A stretch of 64,000 bases of DNA. Source: a virus. Taxonomy: Duplodnaviria; Heunggongvirae; Uroviricota; Caudoviricetes. The notes under the pieces were generated by a model. The model ran no database searches and was not told the origin of the DNA. It was given only the letters and a program-made list of their open reading frames with translations. The DNA lies in IMG/VR virus record IMGVR_UViG_3300025009_000058, one strand, 5' to 3'. How positions within the stretch are numbered: the first letter of the stretch is position 1; every line of letters starts with the position of its first letter. The translations under genes and the position numbers were made by a program. Positions 1-61,203 of this stretch are shown here, piece after piece.

Positions 1-697
1 TTGCAAAAGCTTGTCTGTAAGAATAAATAGTTTCAATGTCTCCAGGATTAGGCTCAATAGCTTCAATTGTCTTTGGATGACCTTTTCTTAAATACACATC
101 CCCCTTTGCGTTATTAAAAAGTAATGAGAAATACTCTCCATCAAGAAAAGCATTTTTAACAATTTCTCTTTCTTTTATTTCCATAGAATTAATTCTACGA
201 AATTCTGAAATAACTTCATTAACTTCTTTCACCGGTGTAGAAACTGTGATACCAGTACCAATAACATAATCAATATAATTATCTACTATTCCATTTATCA
301 AAGGATCTAAAGCATATTTTGTCCAACAAGCATCTTGAATCAACCATAGTTCTGAGTTTGTTAAATCAATCTCAGGAACAGAATCCATAGAGCTTAACAT
401 AATATCATTTACATCATTAAAATTCTTTGAAAACTTCTCATCTTTTACTAATTGTTTCTTAACAAATGCTGTAAGCTCTTTTTTACTATTGTCTCTCCTT
501 TCAATCTCACTAAATAAATATTCTGAATTTGAAGAAAGTATTCTAGCTTCTGCAAGTTCATTTTCAATTCGTTCTTTATGTTTCTCATAGAACAAATTAA
601 CAGCTGCTGATGCAGCTTCTTCAGAAGCTTTACTAATCTGAGTATCAATAGTTTCTTGAGTAGTAATTCTAATTTTGAACTTAAATGGATTTTTCAT
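1..697 (-). CDS. Portal (head-tail connector) protein, 5' portion. The gene continues beyond the window start.
   Basis: ATG at 697 on the minus strand. The frame stays open to position 1 (232 codons, translated by eye: MKNPFKFKIRITTQETIDTQISK...). It sits immediately after the terminase genes in transcription order. The portal call is by position and composition only. Confidence 0.45.
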   Translation of the reverse strand, partial: MKNPFKFKIRITTQETIDTQISKASEEAASAAVNLFYEKHKERIENELAEARILSSNSEYLFSEIERRDNSKKELTAFVKKQLVKDEKFSKNFNDVNDIMLSSMDSVPEIDLTNSELWLIQDACWTKYALDPLINGIVDNYIDYVIGTGITVSTPVKEVNEVISEFRRINSMEIKEREIVKNAFLDGEYFSLLFNNAKGDVYLRKGHPKTIEAIEPNPGDIETIYSYRQAFA

Positions 698-704
698 TTA
701 TATC

Positions 705-1733
705 CTATAGATACGGATTATTCAATCTAGATGATGATCTTAAATCTTGTATATCTCTTGGGTCAGTTGAGATACCATTACCATCATTAGATAATAGATA
801 GTTGTCATATTGTGCTTGAGCGTTCTTATAGAACTGGTCTTGATTCTGTTCAAATTCTTGTTCTGCTTGAGTGGTATAATACATCCTTTCATTCATTACA
901 CAATGGAATGTTGCTCCACATATAGCTTGTTCAACATCAAGTGTACCTCCAGGTGGATGATCTATTTTACCAGTAGCACCCACTTCTTGAGCATAGCTTA
1001 ATTCATCTTCAAAGTAGTCTCTATCATAGCCTACATTTTCTGAATTTGGTATATGTAATCTATCATCATAAATCAATTCTCTTAAGGTATATTGAGCTGC
1101 ATTATAGTTTCCTTCAGTTGACTTCTTTGAATAACCTAATTCATTATCATCAAGTTGTAACCAGTGTGCTGTCCTATCAATAGATAAATGACCAGCTCTA
1201 AAACCATAAGTTCTTAAAATCTGAATACTATCTAATGATTGAAATCTATCAAAAGAAATAAGACCAAAATAAAAGTGACGACGAGCTAATTCATAAATTA
1301 GCTCCCTTATTTCACCTAATATAATATCTTCACCTTTCCTTACAGTAATCCTACCCCAGAAGTCACATTTCACAACGGGTAATTTAACTTTTTCTATCTT
1401 TAATTTATCTTTATCATTAGGATTCTCAAGCCAAACTTCTCTATCAACAAAGGAAGGGACATGGCACATGGCTATACCAACAGCATCTCTATTTTGACCT
1501 AAATCTATATGCATAAAACGTCTAAATGTATCTTTGCAGATAAAATCTGGGTCAAAAGTCTTTGTAAATGGATTAAATAAATTAGGATATGGTTTCTTGC
1601 AGTCTTTTATTTTTCTTTTACGTCTGATAAAAGGATGTATACCTCTCTGGGTAATGTTTGCAATATCTCTAATGAAGTTCTCAATATTCCTTTGAGCACT
1701 AGATTGTAGTGACTTTGGTACACGAATAATCAT
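705..1733 (-). CDS. Large terminase, C-terminal nuclease-domain ORF (separate polypeptide)
   Basis: 342 aa. The RNase-H-like terminase nuclease motif I (FMHIDLGQNRDAVGIAMCHV, D...D) and a later acidic region (KIDHPPGG..DVEQA) are present. It follows the TerL ATPase ORF in the same orientation, with two genes in between. Confidence 0.55.
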   Translation of the reverse strand: MIIRVPKSLQSSAQRNIENFIRDIANITQRGIHPFIRRKRKIKDCKKPYPNLFNPFTKTFDPDFICKDTFRRFMHIDLGQNRDAVGIAMCHVPSFVDREVWLENPNDKDKLKIEKVKLPVVKCDFWGRITVRKGEDIILGEIRELIYELARRHFYFGLISFDRFQSLDSIQILRTYGFRAGHLSIDRTAHWLQLDDNELGYSKKSTEGNYNAAQYTLRELIYDDRLHIPNSENVGYDRDYFEDELSYAQEVGATGKIDHPPGGTLDVEQAICGATFHCVMNERMYYTTQAEQEFEQNQDQFYKNAQAQYDNYLLSNDGNGISTDPRDIQDLRSSSRLNNPYL

Positions 1734-1980
1734 GTTTAACTAATTCCTTTTTATTAATGGCTTTAGCTCCACGAAAAATGCAAGTATTTCTATCTGCTTC
1801 AGAAATATTAAAGTGAAACTCAACTATTTTTGTTGTTCTTTCCGGATTCACCCAGTGTGCTTTATCAGGTTCTAACCCTAAAATCTCTGCAGCAAATATT
1901 ACTAATTCTTCTGCAGACTTATCAGAGAATAGATGGGCATGAGGTTTAACAAGACCATGAATATCAGTTACATATATCAT
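1699..1980 (-). CDS. DUF4031-family protein
   Basis: 93 aa. The N-terminus MIYVTDIHGLVKPHAHLFSD...ELVIFAAEILGL resembles the DUF4031 family often found in phages. The start overlaps the upstream gene's stop. Confidence 0.5.
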   Translation of the reverse strand: MIYVTDIHGLVKPHAHLFSDKSAEELVIFAAEILGLEPDKAHWVNPERTTKIVEFHFNISEADRNTCIFRGAKAINKKELVKHDYSCTKVTTI

Positions 1981-2588
1981 TTTTTATTCCCTACTATATC
2001 TAGTAGATTAATTTGCCAACCCATGAGTAAAATTAAATTGGTTAGTGCAATTGCATCTGATAAAGCTCCATGAGGCCGATGAGTTATCTTCATAGTAGAA
2101 GTCCAAGTTGATAATTGATTGTTTACTAGTTTATTCCTTGATTCTCTACATAATTTTAATGTGTCAATATAAACATGATTAGGAGCAGTAGCACCATAAA
2201 ATTCTAGAAAAGCATGTTCAAAAGCGGCACTGTGTGCATATATTGGATGTTCTCCAAGTACTTCTTTCACTTCTTTTATGACTTCTTTGGTATTAAATGA
2301 TGGAAATCCTTTCAATAAATCAACTGATAAGCCATTTCTTTCAGCAGCTTTATCTGAGATGCTTTTAATAGAATAAAACTTATGATATACATCTTTTACT
2401 TGATTACCTATAACTTTTATAATTGCTATTTCAGCTACTTCACCTCCTACATTAGGACTCAAATTAGTAGTTTCTAAATCAACAACATTAAATGTGGGTA
2501 TGTTATGCATATCTTCCTCTTCTATGGGTTCTTCTATTAGTTTTATTAAGTCTTTCTGTAAAATCAATAATCGACTTACTTCACTCAT
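1977..2588 (-). CDS. DnaQ-like DEDDh 3'-5' exonuclease
   Basis: 203 aa. Exo I VVDLETTNL (D-x-E), Exo II YAHSAAFEHAFL and Exo III HGALSDAIALTNL (H-x4-D) are present. An ATGA start/stop overlap couples it to the upstream TerL-ATPase ORF. Confidence 0.7.
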   Translation of the reverse strand: MSEVSRLLILQKDLIKLIEEPIEEEDMHNIPTFNVVDLETTNLSPNVGGEVAEIAIIKVIGNQVKDVYHKFYSIKSISDKAAERNGLSVDLLKGFPSFNTKEVIKEVKEVLGEHPIYAHSAAFEHAFLEFYGATAPNHVYIDTLKLCRESRNKLVNNQLSTWTSTMKITHRPHGALSDAIALTNLILLMGWQINLLDIVGNKK

Positions 2589-3694
2589 TAACCTACCTTT
2601 AAGTACTTAGCAACTTTTGAAAGGTATTCAGCTTCCATTGACACAATTGGAAAGTTTGCAGCATCAGCAGCATCAAGTAATTCTATGACTTTTGGATCAG
2701 ATATAATCTCTGCATTATCAGTATCAATATAAAAATTATCTTTTTTATGGAGTTTTCCATCTTCATCATAACCTCCATTAAATTCAGGGTAAAATTTATG
2801 CCCTTTTGCTTCCCACATGGGTCTTCTTCTGTAAAAGATTCCAGAATCTGGAATAGTACCCTTTTCTTTTGCTTCCTTTACAATTTTATCATGCAATTCC
2901 ATCTGTTTATGCATAAAATCATCGGGAAAGTTTGGAGAACTAATCATACAGATCATACCTGGTAATTTACCATGTTTCATAAATCTTGAAGTCATTCTGT
3001 TGTAAATAGCATTATACATCTCTTCACAAGCATCAAAACTCCCATCAACAGTCTTATTAGAATCCTCAGTAACTTCCAAAAAAGCAGCTTCATCGATAAT
3101 ACTCCCATATAAGTTATAGCCCAATGCTGAAAGAGCAGAGCTTGTACCAGGGAAAATTGTAGTATTGTTTCTTGAGATCCGGATCTCAGTTGTAAATCTT
3201 GAATCAATAGGAAAATAGTCTTTATTAAATCCACACTGGAAGCGATTAAAGACTTCAGTGAATGTTACCTTTTTAGCTTGTTTCTCTGTGCGGTTCATAT
3301 TAATCAATGCTATAACTGAGCTTGGAGCTAAATCAAAGTAATCTTGTGGGTTATCAATCAAGGACAATTCAAACCATTGAAGCCAAGTAATAATAGAAGA
3401 CTTAGTTGTCTTACCAGAGCCGATTCCTTCCATGAAAATAACTAAGTTTACCTGTCTTTTCTTTCTCTCTTCAAACAAATCTACTATATCTTGTAAAACA
3501 CCATCATAAACTTTATCTCCAAAACCTAAAAAGTATGGATCTTTTATCAAAGTTTCAATAGGGATCTGTGCAAACTCATTAGCAATACGTTGATTCCACT
3601 CAAAAACAGCTCCAGTGGTCTTTTTATTATAATCATCTATATAGTCTTGTGCGAACTTATATAAATAATCTTGTGATTCATCTTTTTTTGCCAT
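2588..3694 (-). CDS. terL: Large terminase, ATPase-domain ORF
   Basis: 368 aa. Walker A GIGSGKTT, Walker B LYGSIIDEAAF and the coupling motif MICMISSP are typical of TerL ATPases. The ORF terminates before any nuclease domain. Confidence 0.8.
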   Translation of the reverse strand: MAKKDESQDYLYKFAQDYIDDYNKKTTGAVFEWNQRIANEFAQIPIETLIKDPYFLGFGDKVYDGVLQDIVDLFEERKKRQVNLVIFMEGIGSGKTTKSSIITWLQWFELSLIDNPQDYFDLAPSSVIALINMNRTEKQAKKVTFTEVFNRFQCGFNKDYFPIDSRFTTEIRISRNNTTIFPGTSSALSALGYNLYGSIIDEAAFLEVTEDSNKTVDGSFDACEEMYNAIYNRMTSRFMKHGKLPGMICMISSPNFPDDFMHKQMELHDKIVKEAKEKGTIPDSGIFYRRRPMWEAKGHKFYPEFNGGYDEDGKLHKKDNFYIDTDNAEIISDPKVIELLDAADAANFPIVSMEAEYLSKVAKYLKVG

Positions 3695-3945
3695 TACTTT
3701 AGCTTCTTTATTTTTATAATTGCTTGTTTTGGTATAGATGTTAATCCACTATAAGGCCTATGGTCTATTGTAGTACAACGACTTTCTGCTAAACAAATAC
3801 CTTCTTTAGTATATTCAATTAGAAAACCTACCGATTGACACTGTGATATATCAATATGACAATCTTGTTTACTCAACCAACCCGGTTGACCACTTGAATC
3901 TACCCAATCAACTAATATTAAATCATCTTTCTTAAGTTTCATCAT
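3694..3945 (-). CDS. Hypothetical protein
   Basis: 83-aa ORF translationally coupled to terL (its stop overlaps the terL start). Confidence 0.4.
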   Translation of the reverse strand: MMKLKKDDLILVDWVDSSGQPGWLSKQDCHIDISQCQSVGFLIEYTKEGICLAESRCTTIDHRPYSGLTSIPKQAIIKIKKLK

Positions 3946-3996
3946 AATCTAATTTTATCCTCCAGTGATCTGGTTTCTGATTTGTCCATTCTAGTT

Positions 3997-4215
3997 TCAT
4001 TCAAAAATCTCATTTATCCTATTTCTGATATAACTATTTTCAGGATTTGTAGGAAGATAAGTATTCCATTTTATTGGGTCATTTTCGAAAGGATTGCATC
4101 CATGTTTTTGTGCATTACTTGCCATTAACAAATTATTTGACATCCATTTACTAGCTTCATATCCTTCCAAAGTTATAACAGTTTTGTCATCTTGTTCAAT
4201 AATAATTCTTGCCAT
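3997..4215 (-). CDS. Hypothetical protein
   Basis: 72-aa ORF in the packaging module. Confidence 0.35.
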   Translation of the reverse strand: MARIIIEQDDKTVITLEGYEASKWMSNNLLMASNAQKHGCNPFENDPIKWNTYLPTNPENSYIRNRINEIFE

Positions 4216-4403
4216 TTATAGTCTCCAAGAGTTTTAAGAGCTTTTCTCAGTTATGATATATGTTTTTGGTATCCAGCCTGGTAGAGTAAAACCTTTTATT
4301 CTGGCATAGACTCTGTCACTATATTTGTGCATAATCCAACATTGAATATACACTGGTTTATAACCAGGACCGGCTAACCAAGCCGCAACATCAACATAGG
4401 TCT

Positions 4404-4610
4404 TCATACTTTCTCAGCATCTTCTTCTTTCAGAGTATACAATTTCTTGTCATACTCAAAGTCTGAGAAAGTTTTTAATCTATTTAATATGGCTTCTTTA
4501 TCAGAGCATAATCTCAGGTCAATGAAATACCATTTCCCCAGAAAACCTTTCGGCCTTTTAGCTTTGATTGCACCAAGATAATATGTTTCAGAATTCACAA
4601 CTCCAGCCAT
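4404..4610 (-). CDS. Hypothetical protein
   Basis: 68-aa ORF whose stop abuts the upstream gene's start. Confidence 0.35.
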   Translation of the reverse strand: MAGVVNSETYYLGAIKAKRPKGFLGKWYFIDLRLCSDKEAILNRLKTFSDFEYDKKLYTLKEEDAEKV

Positions 4611-4612
4611 GA

Positions 4613-5389
4613 TTACTCCACAGGAATAGCAGCTTCAACTTTTTTCAAAAATGAATTTTTCATTTGGTCTGGATCTATTTCTCCAGAATGTATTCTATCT
4701 TTATTTCTAAACGGAATGATGACTTGATTCAGAATATCGTTCATGAGGTTCTTAGCCTCTGGGCCGCGAATTCTTCCAGCAATGATCTCAAATATCTGTT
4801 GGACAAATTCTCTGACGGAGGTTGCATCGAGACGCAATTCTCGCTGTATTTTGTTTTTCAGACCCTTGGCTTTCACCAAATCAAGTGTGATACCTCTGAC
4901 AGTCTCAATTTGGTCGAGAGTCATTTCTTCACCCATTGTCATAATATAGTTTTGCAAAGCATATAGCATTTTGATCTCTGTGTCAACAGACATGAGATCT
5001 TTCTCCTCCAGCTCCTCTGCATGTTCCAATAATTCTGACATCCGTGCTGGGAGCCTGTGTGCCGTTGAAAGCTGAATATTATACAATGACCGTCGACCGT
5101 GATTCGAACATTTTCCGAATCCTTTGTGATCTGATCCCCATCCTGCAGTCAAAAGGCATGGACCATATGTTGTTCTATGGCCACAGATTTTTCTTAGTTT
5201 AACTCCTTCTGGCGATATCAACCAATGAGTGCTCTCAGCTGTATCTTCTTCAACCCGATATCCTTGGAGTTTTTTAAGTTTCCGTATGCCACTAATCTGC
5301 CTGCTAACAGTCTTTATAAATTGTCCAGGGTCATCTTTGGTCTTTGATTGTTCTGAGAGAGATCCGAGTCTTATCTGTTGTTTTGCCAT
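4613..5389 (-). CDS. Zinc-ribbon protein, possibly the small terminase subunit by position
   Basis: 258 aa with a CGHRTTYGPC...CSNHG motif and a C-terminal coiled-coil-like region. The gene is markedly GC-richer (about 45%) than its flanks (about 27%). It lies upstream of terL in the same orientation. Confidence 0.5.
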   Translation of the reverse strand: MAKQQIRLGSLSEQSKTKDDPGQFIKTVSRQISGIRKLKKLQGYRVEEDTAESTHWLISPEGVKLRKICGHRTTYGPCLLTAGWGSDHKGFGKCSNHGRRSLYNIQLSTAHRLPARMSELLEHAEELEEKDLMSVDTEIKMLYALQNYIMTMGEEMTLDQIETVRGITLDLVKAKGLKNKIQRELRLDATSVREFVQQIFEIIAGRIRGPEAKNLMNDILNQVIIPFRNKDRIHSGEIDPDQMKNSFLKKVEAAIPVE

Positions 5390-5766
5390 CTAGGATAGAT
5401 CACTTATGTTTTTACGGAAAATTAAAATGGCTTTATTTAGCCTATCCCATCTATATATGCTAAGAACTCAATCAAAGCACAGCGATACAATTTTATTATA
5501 ATTTGGGAATATGGAGATATTTGTTAGCGTATATTTTATCAATTATATAGTCCTGCTTACACTGGATTAGTTTTATGAAAATCCAAAATTAAAGGATATT
5601 CAATATCTCAGTATAATTTCAAATTGGAAGCCGCTTGCAAGTTGAGTGAAGATTTTTTAGGCATGTGAAAGACGGATGAGTCGGGTAAGTTCAAAAATTT
5701 TTTAAGAAATTTTTTGGAAGATGACTAGACTTTGAAATCGTTGCGAGTTGTTAATAGGTGGAATAA

Positions 5767-5858
5767 TTGGATGATTGGATGATTGGATATTGGCTAATCA
5801 GCTTTAGTGGCTAATCAGCTTTAGTGGCTAATCAGCTTTAGTGGCTAACCGGCTATTC
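5767..5858. repeat. Tandem repeats: (TGGATGAT)x2+TGGATAT, then a 17-mer TGGCTAATCAGCTTTAG x3 plus a degenerate fourth copy
   Basis: Read directly: ggatgattggatgattggatattggctaatcagctttagtggctaatcagctttagtggctaatcagctttagtggctaaccggctattc. It lies in a 750-bp noncoding region next to the putative terS. Confidence 0.85.
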
Positions 5859-5898
5859 CGGATACGGGCTTCTCATTGATAAAAAAAGTTGTCAATTG

Positions 5899-5917
5899 AG
5901 TTGTATTATAGTTGTCA
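5899..5917 (+). promoter_or_regulatory. Short-spacer variant of the conserved promoter-like motif, plus orientation
   Basis: gtattatagttgtcaagtg resembles GTATTATATTTGTTTTGTCAA with a shorter middle. It overlaps the palindrome TTGTCAagTGACAA and lies upstream of the plus-strand island. Confidence 0.25.
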
Positions 5918-6137
5918 AGTGACAAAGACGGAAACATGTCCACAGTAGAAATGCTTATTTTCAAGGTTATGGTGTATAGACAAGGCGACGCCCGTCATAT
6001 ATCTTTGAAACTTTTTTTGAGTTGTAATAGTTTGAGTCTTGATAGTTCACAAAATATATATTATTTATTTTTACAAAGTATTGATTTTTGTTTATACATT
6101 CATTAAGTTTCATTTAGTAATTAATTGAGATATAAAC

Positions 6138-31364: not shown

Positions 31365-31382
31365 GTAAATCCTTTTTATTTG

Positions 31383-31456
31383 CGGAGGCGTTAGGACTCG
31401 AACCTAAATCCCATATCATTTCTGATACGATAATTACCATTATTACAACATCTCCG
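31383..31456 (-). tRNA. tRNA-like element, possibly a tRNA pseudogene or a noncanonical tRNA
   Basis: The minus-strand sequence folds with a canonical T-arm (TTAGG-TTCGAGT-CCTAA). It has a 7-8 bp acceptor stem (GGAGATG / CGCCTCC with one A-C mismatch), a D-arm with GG in the loop and a total length of 73 nt. The anticodon arm is TATC-AGAAAT-GATA, a 6-nt loop that lacks U33. No tRNA search program could be run. Confidence 0.4.
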
Positions 31457-52908: not shown

Positions 52909-53552
52909 TGCAAACTTTTTTATTGTCTGATAAAGAATTTGCTGAAACTATCTATTTCAAAGACTTATGTAAAGGCTTAGAATTTCTTGATAATAAGCGT
53001 TTAAATAAACAAATTCTTGAAGCATACCAAATCTTACAAATTTTAATAAAAGGAACTGGTAGATATTTGAGTCATCCTGTGGTTCAAATGTGGATGAGCT
53101 CAGAGAATCTTTTAGCAAGATATGGTTTTGAATGTTGTAAAGCTTTTCAATCAAAAAGTGCTATAAAGACTATACATAAGTATATGAGCTTCTTTGAAGA
53201 ATATTGTTATACAGCACGACATGCTTATTTTAAAGAACCCTTTTGGTTAGAAAATCAGAATTTTTTACATGAATTAGTAAAGTCTCATAAATCTAATCTT
53301 CAATATAAAGACTCAAGTTATTATCAATTTAATGATATTGACTCAAATCTTTTATATGTTTGGCCTTCATATTATGTATTTGATAAAAATAATGGATTTA
53401 GAATCTCTTATGAAGGTAAAGAAGCTTTACTAAAAACATGTAAAAGGAAAGCAATCAAAGAAGATATTTATCAATCTGAAATATTAAACTCATTCATGTA
53501 TTATGATGGAAATAAATGGGTAAGAGCACTTCATTTAATGGAGAAACAATGA
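52908..53552 (+). CDS. Hypothetical protein
   Basis: 214-aa ORF in the nucleotide-modification cluster. Confidence 0.5.
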   Translation: MQTFLLSDKEFAETIYFKDLCKGLEFLDNKRLNKQILEAYQILQILIKGTGRYLSHPVVQMWMSSENLLARYGFECCKAFQSKSAIKTIHKYMSFFEEYCYTARHAYFKEPFWLENQNFLHELVKSHKSNLQYKDSSYYQFNDIDSNLLYVWPSYYVFDKNNGFRISYEGKEALLKTCKRKAIKEDIYQSEILNSFMYYDGNKWVRALHLMEKQ

Positions 53553-54538
53553 AATTTTCTGTTGGTGGTTTTCAATGCGGCATAGGTAATTTATTAGGCT
53601 TCCAATTAGAAGGTTATAATGTGCTTTTTAATGTGGATAATAGAGAGTTTATACATAAAGGTAAGGTAGCTTTTTATGATAATTTCCCTAATATAAGTAT
53701 TAGTAATGATTTTGATGATGGATTAGTAAATTATCCTACTCCAACAGTTTTAATATCATCTCCATCCTGTAGTCAAATTTCTGCATTAGGAGTGAAAAGA
53801 AAGGATCGTTCAAGTTTAAAGACTCTTGGCATTAAAGATTTTGAATTTTATCATGCTCTAGTAAAATTACTTTATACAAATGCTCCATATATTGTTATGG
53901 AATATTTACCTTCTCTCCTTAGGTTTTTTGAAGTAAGGCATAATGAACTTTATTGTATATCAACAAAAGAATCATTCTCATATCCAGATCATTATCGTGT
54001 TCAAATTGTTAATGTTGATTCACAAATATATGGAACGCCACAGTCTAGAAAACGTTTATTTATTTTCTTTTCGCTAAAGAATTTAGATTTTATGTATCTT
54101 AAACCTTCTACAATGCTCGCTGGTAAAAAAGCTGGAGAAGTTTTAATTGTATTAGATCTTTTAAGAAAAGATAGAAAATTATATGATGATGAACATCCTA
54201 ATCATTCTGAAGAAAGAAAACAAGGTTTTAATAAGCTCTTACCAGGTGATAGTTTTTATGGAACTCAAAATAATAAAAGATTAGATCCTGAAAAGATTTG
54301 CCCAGTTATTGCATCATCAAAAACTCAATATGTACATCCTTGGCATGATAGAGTACTTACACCAAGAGAAGCGGCTACATTTCAAGGATTCCCATTAGAT
54401 TTTCAATTTGGGCATATAAGTTTTTCAACAAAGCTGGATTTAATTGGTAGAAGTATACCAGTACAAGTTGCTGCTCATATAGCAAGTGAGATTAAATACA
54501 ATTATGAAAGAAATATTGATTTAGGAGTTATAGGATGA
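53549..54538 (+). CDS. DNA C5-cytosine methyltransferase-fold protein, paralog 1
   Basis: Motif I FQCGIGNLLGF, motif IV SSPSCSQISALG (PC), motif VI MEYLPS (ENV-like), motif VIII QSRKRLF and the C-terminal LTPREAATFQGFPLDFQF are present. Confidence 0.6.
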   Translation: MKFSVGGFQCGIGNLLGFQLEGYNVLFNVDNREFIHKGKVAFYDNFPNISISNDFDDGLVNYPTPTVLISSPSCSQISALGVKRKDRSSLKTLGIKDFEFYHALVKLLYTNAPYIVMEYLPSLLRFFEVRHNELYCISTKESFSYPDHYRVQIVNVDSQIYGTPQSRKRLFIFFSLKNLDFMYLKPSTMLAGKKAGEVLIVLDLLRKDRKLYDDEHPNHSEERKQGFNKLLPGDSFYGTQNNKRLDPEKICPVIASSKTQYVHPWHDRVLTPREAATFQGFPLDFQFGHISFSTKLDLIGRSIPVQVAAHIASEIKYNYERNIDLGVIG

Positions 54539-55606: not shown

Positions 55607-55895
55607 CATAATTAAATTAGCGGAATCAGATTTTTCAGAGTGTTTGGAAACATTAAGAAAAAAGGGGAATGACTATGCTGCAGAGATTGATGGTCTTTCT
55701 AATTTTAAATATTCCGGTGATTTTGCTGGAGTTACACAAGAGCAATCTTGTAAAGTACTAATTGGTACTAAGCTTGCAAGATTAAGAGAATTAACTAATA
55801 ATCCAAACAAAGTTGTTGCAAATGAATCAGTAAATGATACTATCAAAGATTTAATAAATTATTTAATCTTATGGAAAAGTATTAGAAATGAGTAA
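55593..55895 (+). CDS. Hypothetical protein
   Basis: 100-aa ORF. Confidence 0.4.
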   Translation: MLIADIIKLAESDFSECLETLRKKGNDYAAEIDGLSNFKYSGDFAGVTQEQSCKVLIGTKLARLRELTNNPNKVVANESVNDTIKDLINYLILWKSIRNE

Positions 55896-56910
55896 AATTC
55901 TAAGCACTAAAGATGAATTAATACCACATCCAATATCGAAAGTTTCTTTTGGTAGTATCTATTGTGGAGCAGGTTTTCCTATTTTAGGAGCACTTTGGGC
56001 AGGTATGAATGCTAGATGGGGTCTAGAACCACGACCTTATTTTAATATAAAAACTTTCCGTAGCAATTTTCAATCTATTATGTATTCAAGTGAACTGGAA
56101 GCTTTTCATCAATACCCAGTTGATGTTATTTGGGGAAGTCCAAGTTGTGGAGAGATATCATCAAGTTCTAGAAATTCCAAGAATGCAAAAACTATGGCTA
56201 TGAAAGAATTTCAAGATTTTGAATATGTAAGATTTATATTAGAAATTATTGCTAGAAAACCAAAAGTATTCATTCTTGAAAATATACCTTCTGTGAAAAA
56301 CTTTGTTCAATTTAATTCTACTCCTGCTGGATTTATATTAAAGCATCAAATCTCAAAAGAAGAAGTTCCTCTGTATGATTATTATATTGAAGAGCATAGG
56401 ATTACCCCAACTGAAGTTGGTATACCTCAAGTGAGAGATAGGCTATTTACAATTGGTAGTAGATTTCCTTTTAGGTTTATGTTAGAACCACCAGAAAAAG
56501 ATTATAGAGCTGAACTATCTATTGGGCCTATCTTTGAAGAACTTGATGACCTTAGAAGACAAGGTGTTACTTTACATAATGATCATTTTCCAAAACATTC
56601 AGAAGAAAAAATTGAAAAAATGTCTCGTATTCGTCCTGGAGAAGGTCTCTACGGAGGAATCAACAACAAAAGACTGGACTCAACAAAATGTGGTCCAGTT
56701 ATCATGTCTTCAGCAACTAGGTACATACATCCTTGGGAACATAGACTCCTTACAGGAAGAGAATCAGCATGCCTTATGGGACTACCTTTAGACTTCTTGT
56801 TTATTGGAAGCGAAAATAAAGTATTAGATCAGATAGGGAAAGGTATTGTACCACAAGTTGGTGAATATATTCTAAAACAAGTAAAAAAGTATTTGGAAAA
56901 AGAGTCATGA
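55888..56910 (+). CDS. DNA C5-cytosine methyltransferase-fold protein, paralog 2
   Basis: IYCGAGFPILGA, GSPSCGEISSSS (PC), ILENIPSV (ENV), QVRDRLF (QxRxR) and LLTGRESACLMGLPLDFLF are present. Confidence 0.65.
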   Translation: MSKILSTKDELIPHPISKVSFGSIYCGAGFPILGALWAGMNARWGLEPRPYFNIKTFRSNFQSIMYSSELEAFHQYPVDVIWGSPSCGEISSSSRNSKNAKTMAMKEFQDFEYVRFILEIIARKPKVFILENIPSVKNFVQFNSTPAGFILKHQISKEEVPLYDYYIEEHRITPTEVGIPQVRDRLFTIGSRFPFRFMLEPPEKDYRAELSIGPIFEELDDLRRQGVTLHNDHFPKHSEEKIEKMSRIRPGEGLYGGINNKRLDSTKCGPVIMSSATRYIHPWEHRLLTGRESACLMGLPLDFLFIGSENKVLDQIGKGIVPQVGEYILKQVKKYLEKES

Positions 56911-57214: not shown

Positions 57215-59083
57215 ATGAATAAAATAAGTACTGAACAATTCAAGAAAGCTACTTCAGAGATAATGAAAGGTATAAATACCCCTCATAATAGAGAGATTGT
57301 TAAAGAATATTATAGAGGTAATGAGAATGTATGGCTTGATTCAGCAAATAATCCTTTAATAAGACCTAGACTTGATTTTGTAAAAAATGCAGTATCAACT
57401 CTTAGTGCTGTAAAAGGTAAAGATATCAAAATTCTTGATATTGGAGCTTGGTCTGGTTTGTTTTCAAATGAGCTTAAAATGTTGGGTTATAATAAAGTTC
57501 AATGTCTTGAATTAAATGTAAAGGCATGTCACTTAGGAGAATTTAGATATGCTTTACCCTACATCAATGCAGATGTTGAAACATATAAAACATTTGAAAA
57601 GTTTGATGTTATCATAATGGGAGAGATTATTGAACATTTAATCAATCCAGCTGAGACAATTAATAAAGTTAAATCTTGGTTATCTGATAATGGACTTTTA
57701 TTAATAACTATACCAAGAGAAGAACATATGTGGCCAGGAGTTACTGGAAATCCAGCAGATGAAGGATCTGAGCATATTAACCAGATATCAATTGAGGATC
57801 TTGAAAAACTAGGTATGGTTATTACAGATACTATAACCGCTGCTAACAATGAAATGTCATGGCATGTTGGGTATATAGTGAATTCAGTTATTGAAACAAA
57901 ATTGAAAGAACCAGAAAAACCAACGTTTCACCTATTAGGCTTAGCAGATTATAAACTTGGATGGGAAGAAGCACCTAATAATCCATTCAATACTAAAATT
58001 ATTTATATGTGCAGGATGCTTAAAGAATTAGACTATAAAGTAATTGTTTATGGTGTTGAAGGAAGCAAAATTGATGAGAAGATTGATGAATTTGTTTCTG
58101 TTGTTTCTGAGAGCATGCATAATAAAATACATGGCAAAAGAGATAAAAATGCTCTTGACCATCTAACTAATCAAGAAGGTCTTGATTTTGAAGCTTTTAT
58201 TAAGAATACAATTGAAAGTCTTGAGTCAAGAGTTAAAAAGCATGATTTTATTCTAAATTTCTTTGGGGATGCTTTTAGACCTATCACAGATGTCTATGCA
58301 TCTCATTGTATTTGTATTGAACCTGGAATAGGACATGGTGGATCATATTTACCGGATAGAATTTTTGAATCATACACATGGGCAACAGCTTGTTACTATA
58401 GGTGGAATAAAAACTCTCCCTCATATTTTCCAAACAACTATGATTATGTTATCCCAGCATATTTTAATGTAGATGATTACCCATTTGAAGCAGAGAAAGA
58501 TGATTATTATGTATTCTTGGGAAGGAAAACTTGGGGTAAAGGCTTATCAGTTGCTATTGATGTCACTCACCAATTAGGCAAAAAACTTGTAGTTATAGGC
58601 GGTGGTAGTATATTTGATCCTGACATTCAAGCGGGTTCAGTATATAAAGTATTTGATCATGTAGTTGAAGTAGGAGTATTACCACTTAAGCAAAAAGTTA
58701 AATACTTATCAAAAGCTAAAGCTCTAATCTATTTTAGTCTATATGTTGAGCCATTTGGTCATGCTCCAATTGAAGCCATGTTATGTGGTACTCCAATTAT
58801 TACCAGTGACTATGGAGCTTTTGTTGAAACAAACCTCCATGGAATAACTGGTTATAGATGTAAAACTATGAATGATATTTACTGGGCTTGTAAATCATCT
58901 GAGAAGCTTAATCCAGAAAAGATAAGAAAATATGCTGTTGAAAATTATGGGTTAGAGAACATAAAAGAAATGTTTAAAAGATATTTTAAAGATACTCATG
59001 ATTTAAGAACAGGAAAAGCAGACTGGTATACAATTGACAAACAAAATCCTGCAAACCTTGAATATCTAAGGAAAAAAATATGA
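57215..59083 (+). CDS. Bifunctional class-I SAM methyltransferase / GT-B glycosyltransferase fusion
   Basis: The N-terminal MTase has motif I ILDIGAWSGLF and motif II FDVIIMGEIIEHL. The C-terminal GT1/GT4 has the motif EPFGHAPIEAMLCGTPIITSDYGAFVE. Confidence 0.65.
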   Translation: MNKISTEQFKKATSEIMKGINTPHNREIVKEYYRGNENVWLDSANNPLIRPRLDFVKNAVSTLSAVKGKDIKILDIGAWSGLFSNELKMLGYNKVQCLELNVKACHLGEFRYALPYINADVETYKTFEKFDVIIMGEIIEHLINPAETINKVKSWLSDNGLLLITIPREEHMWPGVTGNPADEGSEHINQISIEDLEKLGMVITDTITAANNEMSWHVGYIVNSVIETKLKEPEKPTFHLLGLADYKLGWEEAPNNPFNTKIIYMCRMLKELDYKVIVYGVEGSKIDEKIDEFVSVVSESMHNKIHGKRDKNALDHLTNQEGLDFEAFIKNTIESLESRVKKHDFILNFFGDAFRPITDVYASHCICIEPGIGHGGSYLPDRIFESYTWATACYYRWNKNSPSYFPNNYDYVIPAYFNVDDYPFEAEKDDYYVFLGRKTWGKGLSVAIDVTHQLGKKLVVIGGGSIFDPDIQAGSVYKVFDHVVEVGVLPLKQKVKYLSKAKALIYFSLYVEPFGHAPIEAMLCGTPIITSDYGAFVETNLHGITGYRCKTMNDIYWACKSSEKLNPEKIRKYAVENYGLENIKEMFKRYFKDTHDLRTGKADWYTIDKQNPANLEYLRKKI

Positions 59084-61203
59084 AAAATAAGATTGCAATT
59101 TTAGTAATTAATTATGAAACCCCAGAATTAACAAAAAACTTAATGAATCAAATTAAGACATTTGATGAATCAAAGTTTGATTTAACTATTTGGGATAATA
59201 GTTCTTCAAATAAGATGACAGAAGCTACTGAACTTAGCACCCGTAATCTTGGATTCGATCAAACTGTATTAAAATGGTTAAGCTGTAAAGAAGATTATGC
59301 TGGATATTGGCTTTTAAATAGTGATTGTGTTTTGGATTTACAATATAATTACTTAGATAAATTCTTAAATTTGATTAATCATGCTGATAATATTGGTATA
59401 GTCACAACAAAGGTTAATGACACTCTTAATGGATTTATATCTCCCCAGAGAATTACACAAAAGGGTATATTTCTCACTAGATATTCTGATTTGCAATCTG
59501 CAGTTTTGTCAAATTCATTTGTAAAAGCTTTCTTAAAAGGTTTAAAAGGGAAAAAATTAAATTACTTTCATGGCGGATTAGATTTAGATTTTGCATTATT
59601 TGCTGAACGAGAAAATTTCTTAATATTAGTAGATTCTACTATGGAAATCAATCATTTGGTTGGAAAATCAACGGATAAAGCGATACCCATTAATGATTTT
59701 ACCAATTTCTTGATTGAAAGGTTTGGTAATTTATCAATACTTGACAAATATACCAATTCTACTGATACTATTAGATTTAATGAAGGTAATGCAGAACTAT
59801 TAAGTGCTACTTTGATTGAAAGATATTCAATGCCTGTACCAGAAAATAAAACACCTTTAAAAGCAGTCATTGAATTAAAATCAAAAAAACTACAAGGACA
59901 AATGGTAGATTGGGGAATTATTAATTTTAATAACGGAATTAAGCTTTTTAATGAAATTAAATATGCAGAAGCTATTCCATATCTTAAAATAGCTGCTTAT
60001 GCAGGAATACATCAAGCATATGCATATTTAAGTAGTTGTTATGATCAGACTGGTCGATTCTCAGAAGGATCTGAGTTTTTTAAACCATTAGTTAATCTAG
60101 AAGTTTATGATGATGTTAGGTCAAGGTATGAATATTTAACTGCTCAAAGAGACACTTATGAAGTTGTAAAAAGAAAACAACAGTTAATAGTTTTCTATGT
60201 AAAACCTGATGCTGGGCATACTTGGGACGCAGATAACACTGAGAAAGGAATTGGCGGATCTGAAATTGCAGTAATACAACTTTCAAAAGAACTTGCTAAA
60301 TTAGGTCACTTAGTTTATGTTTTTAATAATTGTGGTAATCCAAAAATCATTGATGGTGTAGCTTGGGAACCTATAGAGAAATTTGATGCTTTTGAAAAGA
60401 TAAATGAAATACATACTTTAATAGTGTCAAGATTACCAGAATTTAGATTTGTGAATCCAAAGACTAAAGTTTATTTTTGGGCTCATGATTTAAACTATTA
60501 TAACAGGATTAATCCTATTAATATAAACTATTTTGATAAATTTTTAGTGTTATCAAGATATCATTATAGATTCTTTACGGCTGCATATCCATTTATACCT
60601 ACTAGTAAAATGGAGATTTTTGCTAATGGTTTAGATTTATCAAGATTTAACCAAAAAGTAGAAAGAATACCTACAAAATTAATATATTCAAGTAATCCAG
60701 ATAGAGGCATGACTGAGTTGATACCCATTTTTGAAGAACTAAAAAAATGGGATAATAGATTAGAATTACATGTTTTTGGATACTATCCAGATAATATTAG
60801 AAAACATCCAAATTATTGGAAAGAAACACCTGGATTAATTTATAGAGGATATCATAATCAGAAAGATCTTGCAAAAGAATATATGTCTAGTAAATTATGG
60901 TTATATCCTTGCACATGGTTAGAAACATTTTGTATTACAGCCATTGAAGCTCAAGCAGCAGGAACTCCAGCAGTTGCTTCAGATTGGGGTTGTTTGAGAG
61001 AAAGAGTTGGAAATGCCGGTATTATTGTTGATGGTTGGATAAAAAATAAAGACCATAGAGAAAATTTTATAAATGCTGTTAAACATTTATTAACCAATGA
61101 TATTGACTGGTATGATTATCATCAAAAAGGATTAGAACAGTCTAAGAACTTATCTTGGATTAATGTTGCAAAAAGATTCTTAGAATTGGGAGATAAATTA
61201 TGA
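59080..61203 (+). CDS. Multi-domain glycosyltransferase (GT2-like N-terminus, TPR-like middle, GT-B C-terminus)
   Basis: N-terminus IAILVINYET...DLTIWDNSSSN. C-terminus TFCITAIEAQAAGTPAVASDWGCLRERV (GT1/GT4 E..G..lEA.a.G.P motif). Confidence 0.6.
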   Translation: MKNKIAILVINYETPELTKNLMNQIKTFDESKFDLTIWDNSSSNKMTEATELSTRNLGFDQTVLKWLSCKEDYAGYWLLNSDCVLDLQYNYLDKFLNLINHADNIGIVTTKVNDTLNGFISPQRITQKGIFLTRYSDLQSAVLSNSFVKAFLKGLKGKKLNYFHGGLDLDFALFAERENFLILVDSTMEINHLVGKSTDKAIPINDFTNFLIERFGNLSILDKYTNSTDTIRFNEGNAELLSATLIERYSMPVPENKTPLKAVIELKSKKLQGQMVDWGIINFNNGIKLFNEIKYAEAIPYLKIAAYAGIHQAYAYLSSCYDQTGRFSEGSEFFKPLVNLEVYDDVRSRYEYLTAQRDTYEVVKRKQQLIVFYVKPDAGHTWDADNTEKGIGGSEIAVIQLSKELAKLGHLVYVFNNCGNPKIIDGVAWEPIEKFDAFEKINEIHTLIVSRLPEFRFVNPKTKVYFWAHDLNYYNRINPININYFDKFLVLSRYHYRFFTAAYPFIPTSKMEIFANGLDLSRFNQKVERIPTKLIYSSNPDRGMTELIPIFEELKKWDNRLELHVFGYYPDNIRKHPNYWKETPGLIYRGYHNQKDLAKEYMSSKLWLYPCTWLETFCITAIEAQAAGTPAVASDWGCLRERVGNAGIIVDGWIKNKDHRENFINAVKHLLTNDIDWYDYHQKGLEQSKNLSWINVAKRFLELGDKL

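Follow-up and report, generated by a model that had tools for sequence, protein, structure and literature searches.

Large terminase encoded as separate ATPase and nuclease genes in an uncultured tailed virus and many of its relatives

Must the motor and the nuclease of a viral DNA-packaging enzyme be parts of one polypeptide? The large terminase subunit (TerL) is a hallmark enzyme of tailed phages and herpesviruses, and the textbook view is of a universal two-domain single chain. The question is raised by a 64,000-nucleotide stretch of DNA from IMG/VR record IMGVR_UViG_3300025009_000058 (Caudoviricetes), hereafter the window, which covers 64 kb of the ~121-kb genome of an uncultured virus. 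Directly upstream of its portal gene lie four tightly packed genes on the minus strand, which an earlier interpretation made without database searches (the sequence-only reading) had described as a TerL split into an ATPase and a nuclease open reading frame (ORF), with genes for a DnaQ-like exonuclease and a DUF4031 protein between them. ORFs re-listed from the sequence recovered all four genes at the coordinates first reported (Table 1). The interpretation that we favour, with a probability of about 75%, is that TerL is here a two-subunit enzyme, derived from a single-chain ancestor cut at the inter-domain linker, whose separately translated halves likely reassemble non-covalently. Below we set out the evidence that the halves, TerL-A (ATPase) and TerL-N (nuclease), belong to one enzyme, the evidence that the split is genuine and widespread, and the alternatives that have to be weighed against a reassembled terminase.

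Neither half had a match in our local Pfam copy or in NCBIfam, searches of the PDB with phmmer and with hmmsearch profiles gave only chance matches, and blastn of window positions 500-5500 against 50,697 phage genomes returned no match. Since the halves were not recognised by the Pfam copy, NCBIfam or PDB searches, a call that had been based on motifs needed support from homologues and from fold. For TerL-A, both were found. Its 115 homologues are mostly stand-alone proteins of 310-370 aa, and it carries the Walker A, Walker B and coupling (C) motifs of a TerL-type additional-strand catalytic glutamate (ASCE) P-loop ATPase (Table 1), with R233 and R237 invariant too across 46 homologues. An AlphaFold2 model of TerL-A (predicted local distance difference test score 88.8) had as its top Foldseek matches in the PDB the ATPase domain of T4 gp17 and the TerLs of HK97, D6E, P74-26 and Sf6 (probability 1.00); ranks 1-6 and 8-15 were filled by T4 gp17, HK97, D6E, P74-26, Sf6 and T7 TerL at E values of 1e-7 to 1e-4, placing the fold nearer to solved TerL ATPase domains than to other ATPases. 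The only PHROG match of TerL-A was a weak one to phrog_9, terminase large subunit (E 1e-3). The Pfam family PF27249 (MJ0330_N), whose model is absent from our local Pfam copy, was precomputed for 111 of the 115 homologues and for the identical gene of the ENA contig L087; a search of the literature on MJ0330 found no paper.

TerL-N has the conserved acidic residues of TerL's C-terminal RNase H-fold nuclease (Table 1), and its structure model matches structures of the herpesvirus terminase pUL15 / UL89. Of its 31 homologues, the complete and intein-free ones are stand-alone proteins of 316-339 aa, encoded on the same contigs as homologues of TerL-A. The ATG at 1733 is the true start of the gene, as an aligned M-x-I-(I/L)-(R/K)-(V/I)-P begins 28 of 28 homologues.

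The two halves are collinear with single-chain proteins. Residues 73-357 of TerL-A align to residues 1-270 of the 594-aa protein P0077 (47% identity, E 1e-76), and residues 2-308 of TerL-N to residues 259-562 of the same chain (37% identity, E 2e-54). A comparison of the TerL-N profile with the fused protein P0096 (544 aa) by hhalign gave a probability of 99.7% over residues 279-514, so that the relation of the 342-aa ORF to TerL nucleases, which the sequence-only reading had left to profile comparison, is borne out. The cultured phages matched in tblastn, at identities of up to 34%, belonged to the same groups for both halves, among them Gordonia Montyvirus, Streptomyces phages, Vibrio SIO-2-like phages and Rhizobium RHph_TM16. 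For each of the five cultured-phage records inspected, the matches of both halves fell within a single gene of ~600-673 aa, annotated as terminase large subunit for the Gordonia and Rhizobium phages and as a hypothetical protein for the other three. Single-chain TerLs of the family include gp10 of Gordonia Montyvirus, VPEG_00070 of Vibrio phage SIO-2, EVB27_128 of Rhizobium phage RHph_TM16, CDS0160 of Acinetobacter phage Ab1-TPeters and ORF78 of Ralstonia phage RP13. These share with the window the ATPase and RNase H-fold domains, their order and their motifs, as well as adjacency to the portal gene where this was checked (the Gordonia phage), but form one polypeptide rather than two polypeptides whose genes are separated by 854 nt of other genes. 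The proposal that the outer ORFs are the two halves of one TerL is upheld by collinearity, motif conservation and the fold of TerL-A, and the comparison with related phages that had been suggested along with it found TerL intact in five of five cultured phages and in nine of 59 related loci.

Table 1. Features of the terminase locus, with positions in the window.
Feature	Position	Strand	Evidence
TerL-N, stand-alone RNase H-fold nuclease half of TerL, 342 aa, own conserved start codon	705..1733	-	
Nuclease motif I HIDLG (D77)	1497..1511	-	D77 invariant in 28 homologues
Nuclease motif II SFDRFQS (D162)	1236..1256	-	D162, F164, Q165 and S166 invariant in 28 homologues
Nuclease motif III KIDHPPGGTLDVEQ (D258, H259, D266)	927..968	-	K256, D258, H259 and D266 invariant in 28 homologues
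DUF4031 protein, 93 aa	1699..1980	-	PF13223, E 2.7e-8, 34.4 bits vs cut-off 25.6, residues 14-82; phrog_4887
DnaQ/RNase T-like DEDDh 3'-5' exonuclease, 203 aa	1977..2588	-	RNase_T PF00929, E 4.5e-14, 53.8 bits vs cut-off 24
TerL-A, stand-alone motor ATPase half of TerL, 368 aa, own stop codon	2588..3694	-	Homologues, alignment to fused TerL, fold
Walker A GIGSGKT, residues 90-96 of TerL-A	3407..3427	-	G92, G94 and K95 invariant in 46 homologues
Walker B SIIDEA, residues 198-203 of TerL-A	3086..3103	-	D201 and E202 invariant in 46 homologues
C (coupling) motif ISSP, residues 251-254 of TerL-A	2933..2944	-	S252 and S253 at least 90% conserved
Portal gene, 5' part (first 232 codons)	1..697	-	phrog_64 portal protein, E 6.5e-5; continues past left end of window
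Conserved 258-aa gene upstream of TerL-A	4613..5389	-	Homologues upstream of TerL-A in 46 related loci; GC 0.43 vs ~0.31 in neighbours
Four small ORFs (68, 57, 72 and 83 aa) between 258-aa gene and TerL-A	3694..4610	-	Homologues only in contigs of the same genome

At the locus itself, the two domains of TerL sit in separate ORFs, each with its own stop and start codon, and the 854 nt between them are fully coding. Junctions were read directly from the sequence. The stop codon of TerL-A overlaps the start codon of the exonuclease gene by 1 nt (TAATG), and the stop of the exonuclease gene overlaps the start of the DUF4031 gene by 4 nt (ATGA); the coupling by ATGA and TAATG overlaps that had been proposed throughout therefore stands for these two junctions, but not for the third, where DUF4031 and TerL-N share a 35-nt overlap in different frames, the ATG of the latter falling within the 3' end of the former. 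Translation of TerL-N stops 7 nt before the portal gene starts, placing this packaging module next to the portal, whose complete gene encodes 590 aa (L087). The gene order was the same in L087, and TerL-N was followed by the portal in all four loci checked (the window, L003, L005 and L086), the orthologous positions in L003, L005 and L086 also matching portal PHROGs.

An artefact of sequencing or assembly, or a decaying pseudogene confined to one contig, could in principle give the same picture, as the window comes from a metagenomic assembly and NCBI lists the two halves only as hypothetical proteins (HLD98120.1 and HLD98117.1, in a metagenome-assembled genome (MAG) labelled Candidatus Nanoarchaeia). 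Yet 23 contigs, read from 43 index blocks, carry the identical gene string of 368-203-93-342-590 aa; they come from different sources and reach 121-123.5 kb, and identical proteins are recorded in NCBI, JGI, ENA and Logan. Alignment of L087 to window positions 1-5997 gave 0 mismatches and one 17-nt gap, upstream of TerL-A, while L007 matched the window at 99.93% with no gap, and neither contig had an indel inside the four genes. With 50 non-redundant related loci split at the same point and catalytic residues invariant among homologues, an artefact is vanishingly improbable. The 17 nt in question lie somewhere in 3695-5997 of the window and are absent from the otherwise identical L087.

Might the halves nonetheless be rejoined after transcription or during translation? 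Interrupted terL genes are known in several phages, and as here their coding sequence is in pieces: group I introns interrupt terL in Jug phages, where RNA splicing restores one protein (PMC12880540); inteins interrupt it in cyanophage Mic1, where one protein is restored by protein splicing (PMC7156551); and in Streptomyces phage phiHau3, blocks of 10 nt are passed over by ribosome bypassing to yield one protein (PMC10732093). Inteins are, moreover, common in relatives of both halves. Unlike those cases, this locus shows no ribozyme, Hint domain or bypass signal, and its pieces, which part at the inter-domain linker, are each equipped with translation signals. Searches with Rfam intron families gave no match in window positions 1-6000 at E <= 1 and none at gathering thresholds in 12 related loci, and Pfam detected no Hint or intein domain in either half; neither an intron-interrupted terL nor one interrupted by an intein or split intein was found here. 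What separates the halves is two conserved protein genes with overlapping stops and starts. TerL-N is TerL sequence from residue 2 onwards, and the tail of TerL-A, at ~28 aa, is too short for an N-intein. Relatives in which the halves are adjacent have plain TAATG junctions with in-frame stops; -1 frameshifting was rejected for them, as no slippery heptamer is present and stops occur in the TerL-N frame just upstream (L005, L080). Rejoining by a group I or II intron, by split-intein trans-splicing or by ribosomal frameshifting or bypassing is accordingly very unlikely, and the earlier judgement that the arrangement is not an intron, intein, frameshift or sequencing error is sustained by the agreement of contigs, the lack of intron or intein matches in these searches and the plain TAATG junctions of relatives.

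Large insertions were often seen in relatives at three points, none of which is occupied in the window copy: around position 92/93 of TerL-A, at the P-loop (L009, L031-L033, L039, L040, L058, L065 and L073); around 197-204 of TerL-A, at Walker B (L003, L005, L065 and L073); and around 162/163 of TerL-N, at the FDRFQS site (L065, P0139, P0149 and P0150). Several of these insertions are annotated as Intein_splicing. In L045 (3114-4876), L046 (3145-4907) and L080 (2-2813), the ATPase half is broken into two ORFs inside the Walker B intein site, possibly by a naturally split or a frameshifted intein.

Is the split, then, a peculiarity of this genome? Stop-to-stop frames of 75 IMG/VR loci and of other contigs were searched with hidden Markov models of both halves. 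Fifty of the 59 non-redundant loci with both halves were split and nine were fused; the split is an old and clade-wide state rather than a peculiarity of the window. The halves of split loci were always in the order TerL-A then TerL-N on one strand, at a distance between stop-to-stop frames of -15 nt to ~2.75 kb, and neither half was found alone in any locus with sufficient flank. Searching 1.84 billion cluster representatives with a profile recovered 2,987 nuclease-half homologues (E <= 1e-3); among the 157 sequences that could be classified, pooled from all searches, 94 were stand-alone and 63 fused. In neighbour-joining trees, a distant clade was essentially all fused and a near clade mostly split, with fused lineages nested inside the latter (e.g. 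P0077; P0168; P0151, P0166 and P0171; P0190, P0195 and P0217). The Fitch minimum was 13 state changes, a soft count given trees without support values. On these topologies, more than one transition between the split and fused states is likely to have occurred, and the state looks labile. Such transitions would be mutationally easy, since a TAATG junction needs only a small indel for its two frames to become one. Fused relatives have linkers of 0 to 89 aa separating their last ATPase hairpin from the conserved (I/V)P..(L/Y)....NPE..RD helix, indicating that the break point tolerates disruption. The linkers of fused P0226 and P0271 hold inserts of 44-60 aa with CxxC...C..C patterns that resemble a zinc ribbon.

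A footprint of the fission was sought in the tail of TerL-A (NFPIVSMEAEY), which might be a duplicate of the N-terminus of TerL-N (IIRVPKSLQ), both aligning to one segment of P0077. The tail motif is conserved only in the subclade of the window and is absent or different elsewhere, and in short fused relatives the two half-profiles simply overlap on one beta-strand; the duplication was left unproven.

The identities first proposed for the two genes between the halves held up, with PF00929 and PF13223 both scoring above their cut-offs (Table 1). The exonuclease also matched phrog_192 (4e-23) and NCBIfam models of PolC/DnaQ exonucleases, and has the motifs of a DEDDh enzyme, VVDLETT (DxE), HSAAFEHAFL (NxxF(D/E)) and HGALSDA (Hx4D), with conservation of the acidic and histidine positions across 20 orthologues. 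Of the 50 split loci, 32 have an orthologue between the halves and four more (L036, L041, L043 and L053) have one just upstream of TerL-A, giving 36 of 50 split loci against none of nine fused ones with an exonuclease near the terminase (Fisher p = 6.5e-5, not corrected for phylogeny). The remaining 14 split loci had no exonuclease within the flanks fetched. DUF4031, by comparison, occurs among related terminase loci only in this genome, and in the nearest relative (L001, TerL-A ~63% identical) the exonuclease gene directly abuts the nuclease half. Other relatives carry different cargo in the gap, namely a GH108 + PG_binding_3 lysin in 20 loci and, elsewhere, Amidase_2, a GT11 glycosyltransferase, a metallophosphoesterase, a radical-SAM protein or a full DnaG primase.

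These distributions tell against the fission of TerL by insertion of a mobile two-gene cassette, as the sequence-only reading had suggested. The halves abut by a TAATG overlap in L005, L049 and L080, where TerL-N starts MSILKVP or MAILKIP, and lie ~33 nt apart in L073. Because relatives thus have separate ORFs with nothing between them, the split needs no insert; and because the exonuclease occupies 32 of 50 gaps whereas DUF4031 is found only here and is absent from the gap of L001, the two genes do not form one cassette. Whether they serve packaging at all is a separate matter. It is an even bet that both are passengers, replication, repair or accessory genes housed in a permissive slot. That the slot holds varied cargo in relatives, that DUF4031 is unique to this genome, that the best matches of the exonuclease are PolC/DnaQ proofreading domains and a PHROG family named DNA polymerase exonuclease subunit, and that 14 split loci show no exonuclease within the fetched flanks all speak for passengers. 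Yet the exonuclease is by far the most persistent occupant of the gap, stays beside the terminase even when outside it, as in the four loci where it lies upstream of TerL-A, and is absent near nine of nine fused relatives. For the exonuclease taken by itself, the odds between packaging accessory and passenger are roughly even.

Under the two-subunit interpretation, the flexible linker joining the ATPase and nuclease domains of an ancestral single-chain TerL would have been severed, leaving TerL-A as a complete ASCE ATPase motor and TerL-N as the linker helices plus a complete RNase H-fold nuclease. One packaging operon would be transcribed, comprising a 258-aa candidate small terminase subunit (TerS), small ORFs, TerL-A, the exonuclease, DUF4031, TerL-N and the portal. 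The halves would then reassemble non-covalently on the portal and DNA to do the job of a single-chain TerL, cutting concatemeric DNA, translocating it into the prohead and cutting again. The space between them may have become a permissive slot collecting extra genes, in which the DEDDh exonuclease would be a long-standing resident and DUF4031 a recent, genome-specific addition; the former may trim or process DNA ends in packaging, or may be a parked replication or repair gene.

Several considerations weigh against this interpretation. Binding of the halves to each other, their function in packaging and any role of the exonuclease are what we infer. No docking element is evident, because TerL-A ends in short C-terminal tails that are little conserved across the clade. 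The domains of T4 gp17, when expressed separately, are said to keep their ATPase and nuclease activities and reportedly do not package in trans, so non-covalent function is not a given. Phylogeny confounds the association of the exonuclease with the split state, and the variety of cargo in the gap, from lysins and primase to glycosyltransferase and radical-SAM proteins, argues that the slot is simply permissive. Finally, as the window represents 64 of ~121 kb, a second, conventional TerL may be encoded elsewhere in the genome.

The main rival to a reassembled TerL is that the halves no longer cooperate: TerL-A alone would package, and TerL-N, possibly with the exonuclease, would be an independent DNA-processing module, with roles that possibly include end maturation, host DNA degradation or recombination. 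The separability of the two genes by up to 2.8 kb of unrelated cargo would fit, as would the presence of the exonuclease between or beside the halves in split loci only, and packaging ATPases of phi29-type motors work without a cutting domain. The ATPase of the phi29 gp16 type, with its vestigial nuclease domain, resembles the present case in that the motor is not coupled in cis to an active nuclease. In phi29, however, nuclease activity has been lost altogether, and the genome packaged is of unit length and protein-primed, whereas here a complete nuclease, its catalytic residues intact, persists as a protein of its own encoded in the same operon. TerL-N retains the full linker and nuclease sequence of TerL with all acidic residues, directly before the portal gene; order and orientation of the halves are invariant, neither having been found alone where flanks sufficed; and a ~121-kb genome whose window portion showed no genes for protein-primed replication still needs a terminase that cuts concatemers. 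The nesting of fused lineages among split ones suggests that the two states are functionally interchangeable. Independent halves are disfavoured by portal synteny and by the interleaving of fused and split lineages, and we consider them improbable.

A more elaborate division of labour can be envisaged, with three components: an ATPase ring of TerL-A, a detachable TerL-N brought in solely to make the initiation and termination cuts, and a DEDDh exonuclease dedicated to processing the ends so produced. We regard this as speculative and rather unlikely, and we know of no characterised tailed virus in which packaging is divided in this way. Were it true, packaging would not require the TerL domains to be covalently joined, as the recurrent changes between the split and the fused state would then demonstrate.

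Two further systems offer partial parallels. In HK97, the HNH endonuclease gp74 is encoded beside the terminase genes and reportedly stimulates cos cleavage; there, as here, the terminase genes have an additional nuclease gene as a lasting neighbour, although here it is a DEDDh 3'-5' exonuclease with no known role in packaging. The herpesvirus terminase pUL15 / UL89 is encoded by two exons, so that its ATPase and nuclease parts are apart in the genome as in the window, but the exons are spliced into one mRNA and one protein. In the open-access literature searched, no description was found of TerL ATPase and nuclease halves that are translated separately, only the intron, intein and bypass cases. 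The locus encodes, in sum, a known enzyme in a new and widespread architecture of two polypeptides, whose operon contains a slot for cargo.

A clade in which motor and nuclease are separate would be a ready-made experiment on whether the nuclease must travel with the translocating motor, and on the likewise long-standing questions of which domain contacts the portal and how the nuclease is switched off during translocation. The gap between the halves, a hot spot for cargo inside an essential operon, is of interest for the study of phage genome plasticity. As the halves escape our local Pfam copy, NCBIfam and nearly all PHROGs, phage detection and phylogenies based on TerL will miss or truncate the clade.

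Upstream of TerL-A, the conserved 258-aa gene (Table 1) had no Pfam and no PHROG match, and its homologue was immediately upstream of TerL-A where coordinates were compared (L012 and L017); by position, it is a candidate small terminase. The four small ORFs between it and TerL-A are, like DUF4031, recent insertions into the packaging operon. A scan for promoters and terminators was uninformative, promoter predictions being no better than in shuffled sequence.

Clues to the host domain conflict. Proteins of the genome (HLD98117.1, HLD98119.1 and HLD98120.1) are found in the Candidatus Nanoarchaeia MAG, and relatives occur in MAGs labelled Thorarchaeota or 'archaeon', where mis-binning of a viral contig is plausible; set against these archaeal labels are the peptidoglycan lysins of marine relatives and the DnaB/DnaG-type replication genes of the window. 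The replication module of the window comprises a DnaB-like helicase, a second helicase, a DnaG-like primase and an ATP-dependent ligase, with methyltransferase and glycosyltransferase genes alongside, and together with the portal and terminase genes it identifies the window as part of a large tailed-virus genome. At 31382-31455 on the minus strand, ARAGORN called a tRNA whose anticodon has four bases (gaaa) and whose type it left undetermined; this may be a miscall or an unusual tRNA. On the plus strand, two paralogous genes for 340-aa DNA methyltransferases lie close together at 53516-54538 and 55888-56910, followed downstream by two large glycosyltransferase genes (622 and 707 aa) at 57215-61203.

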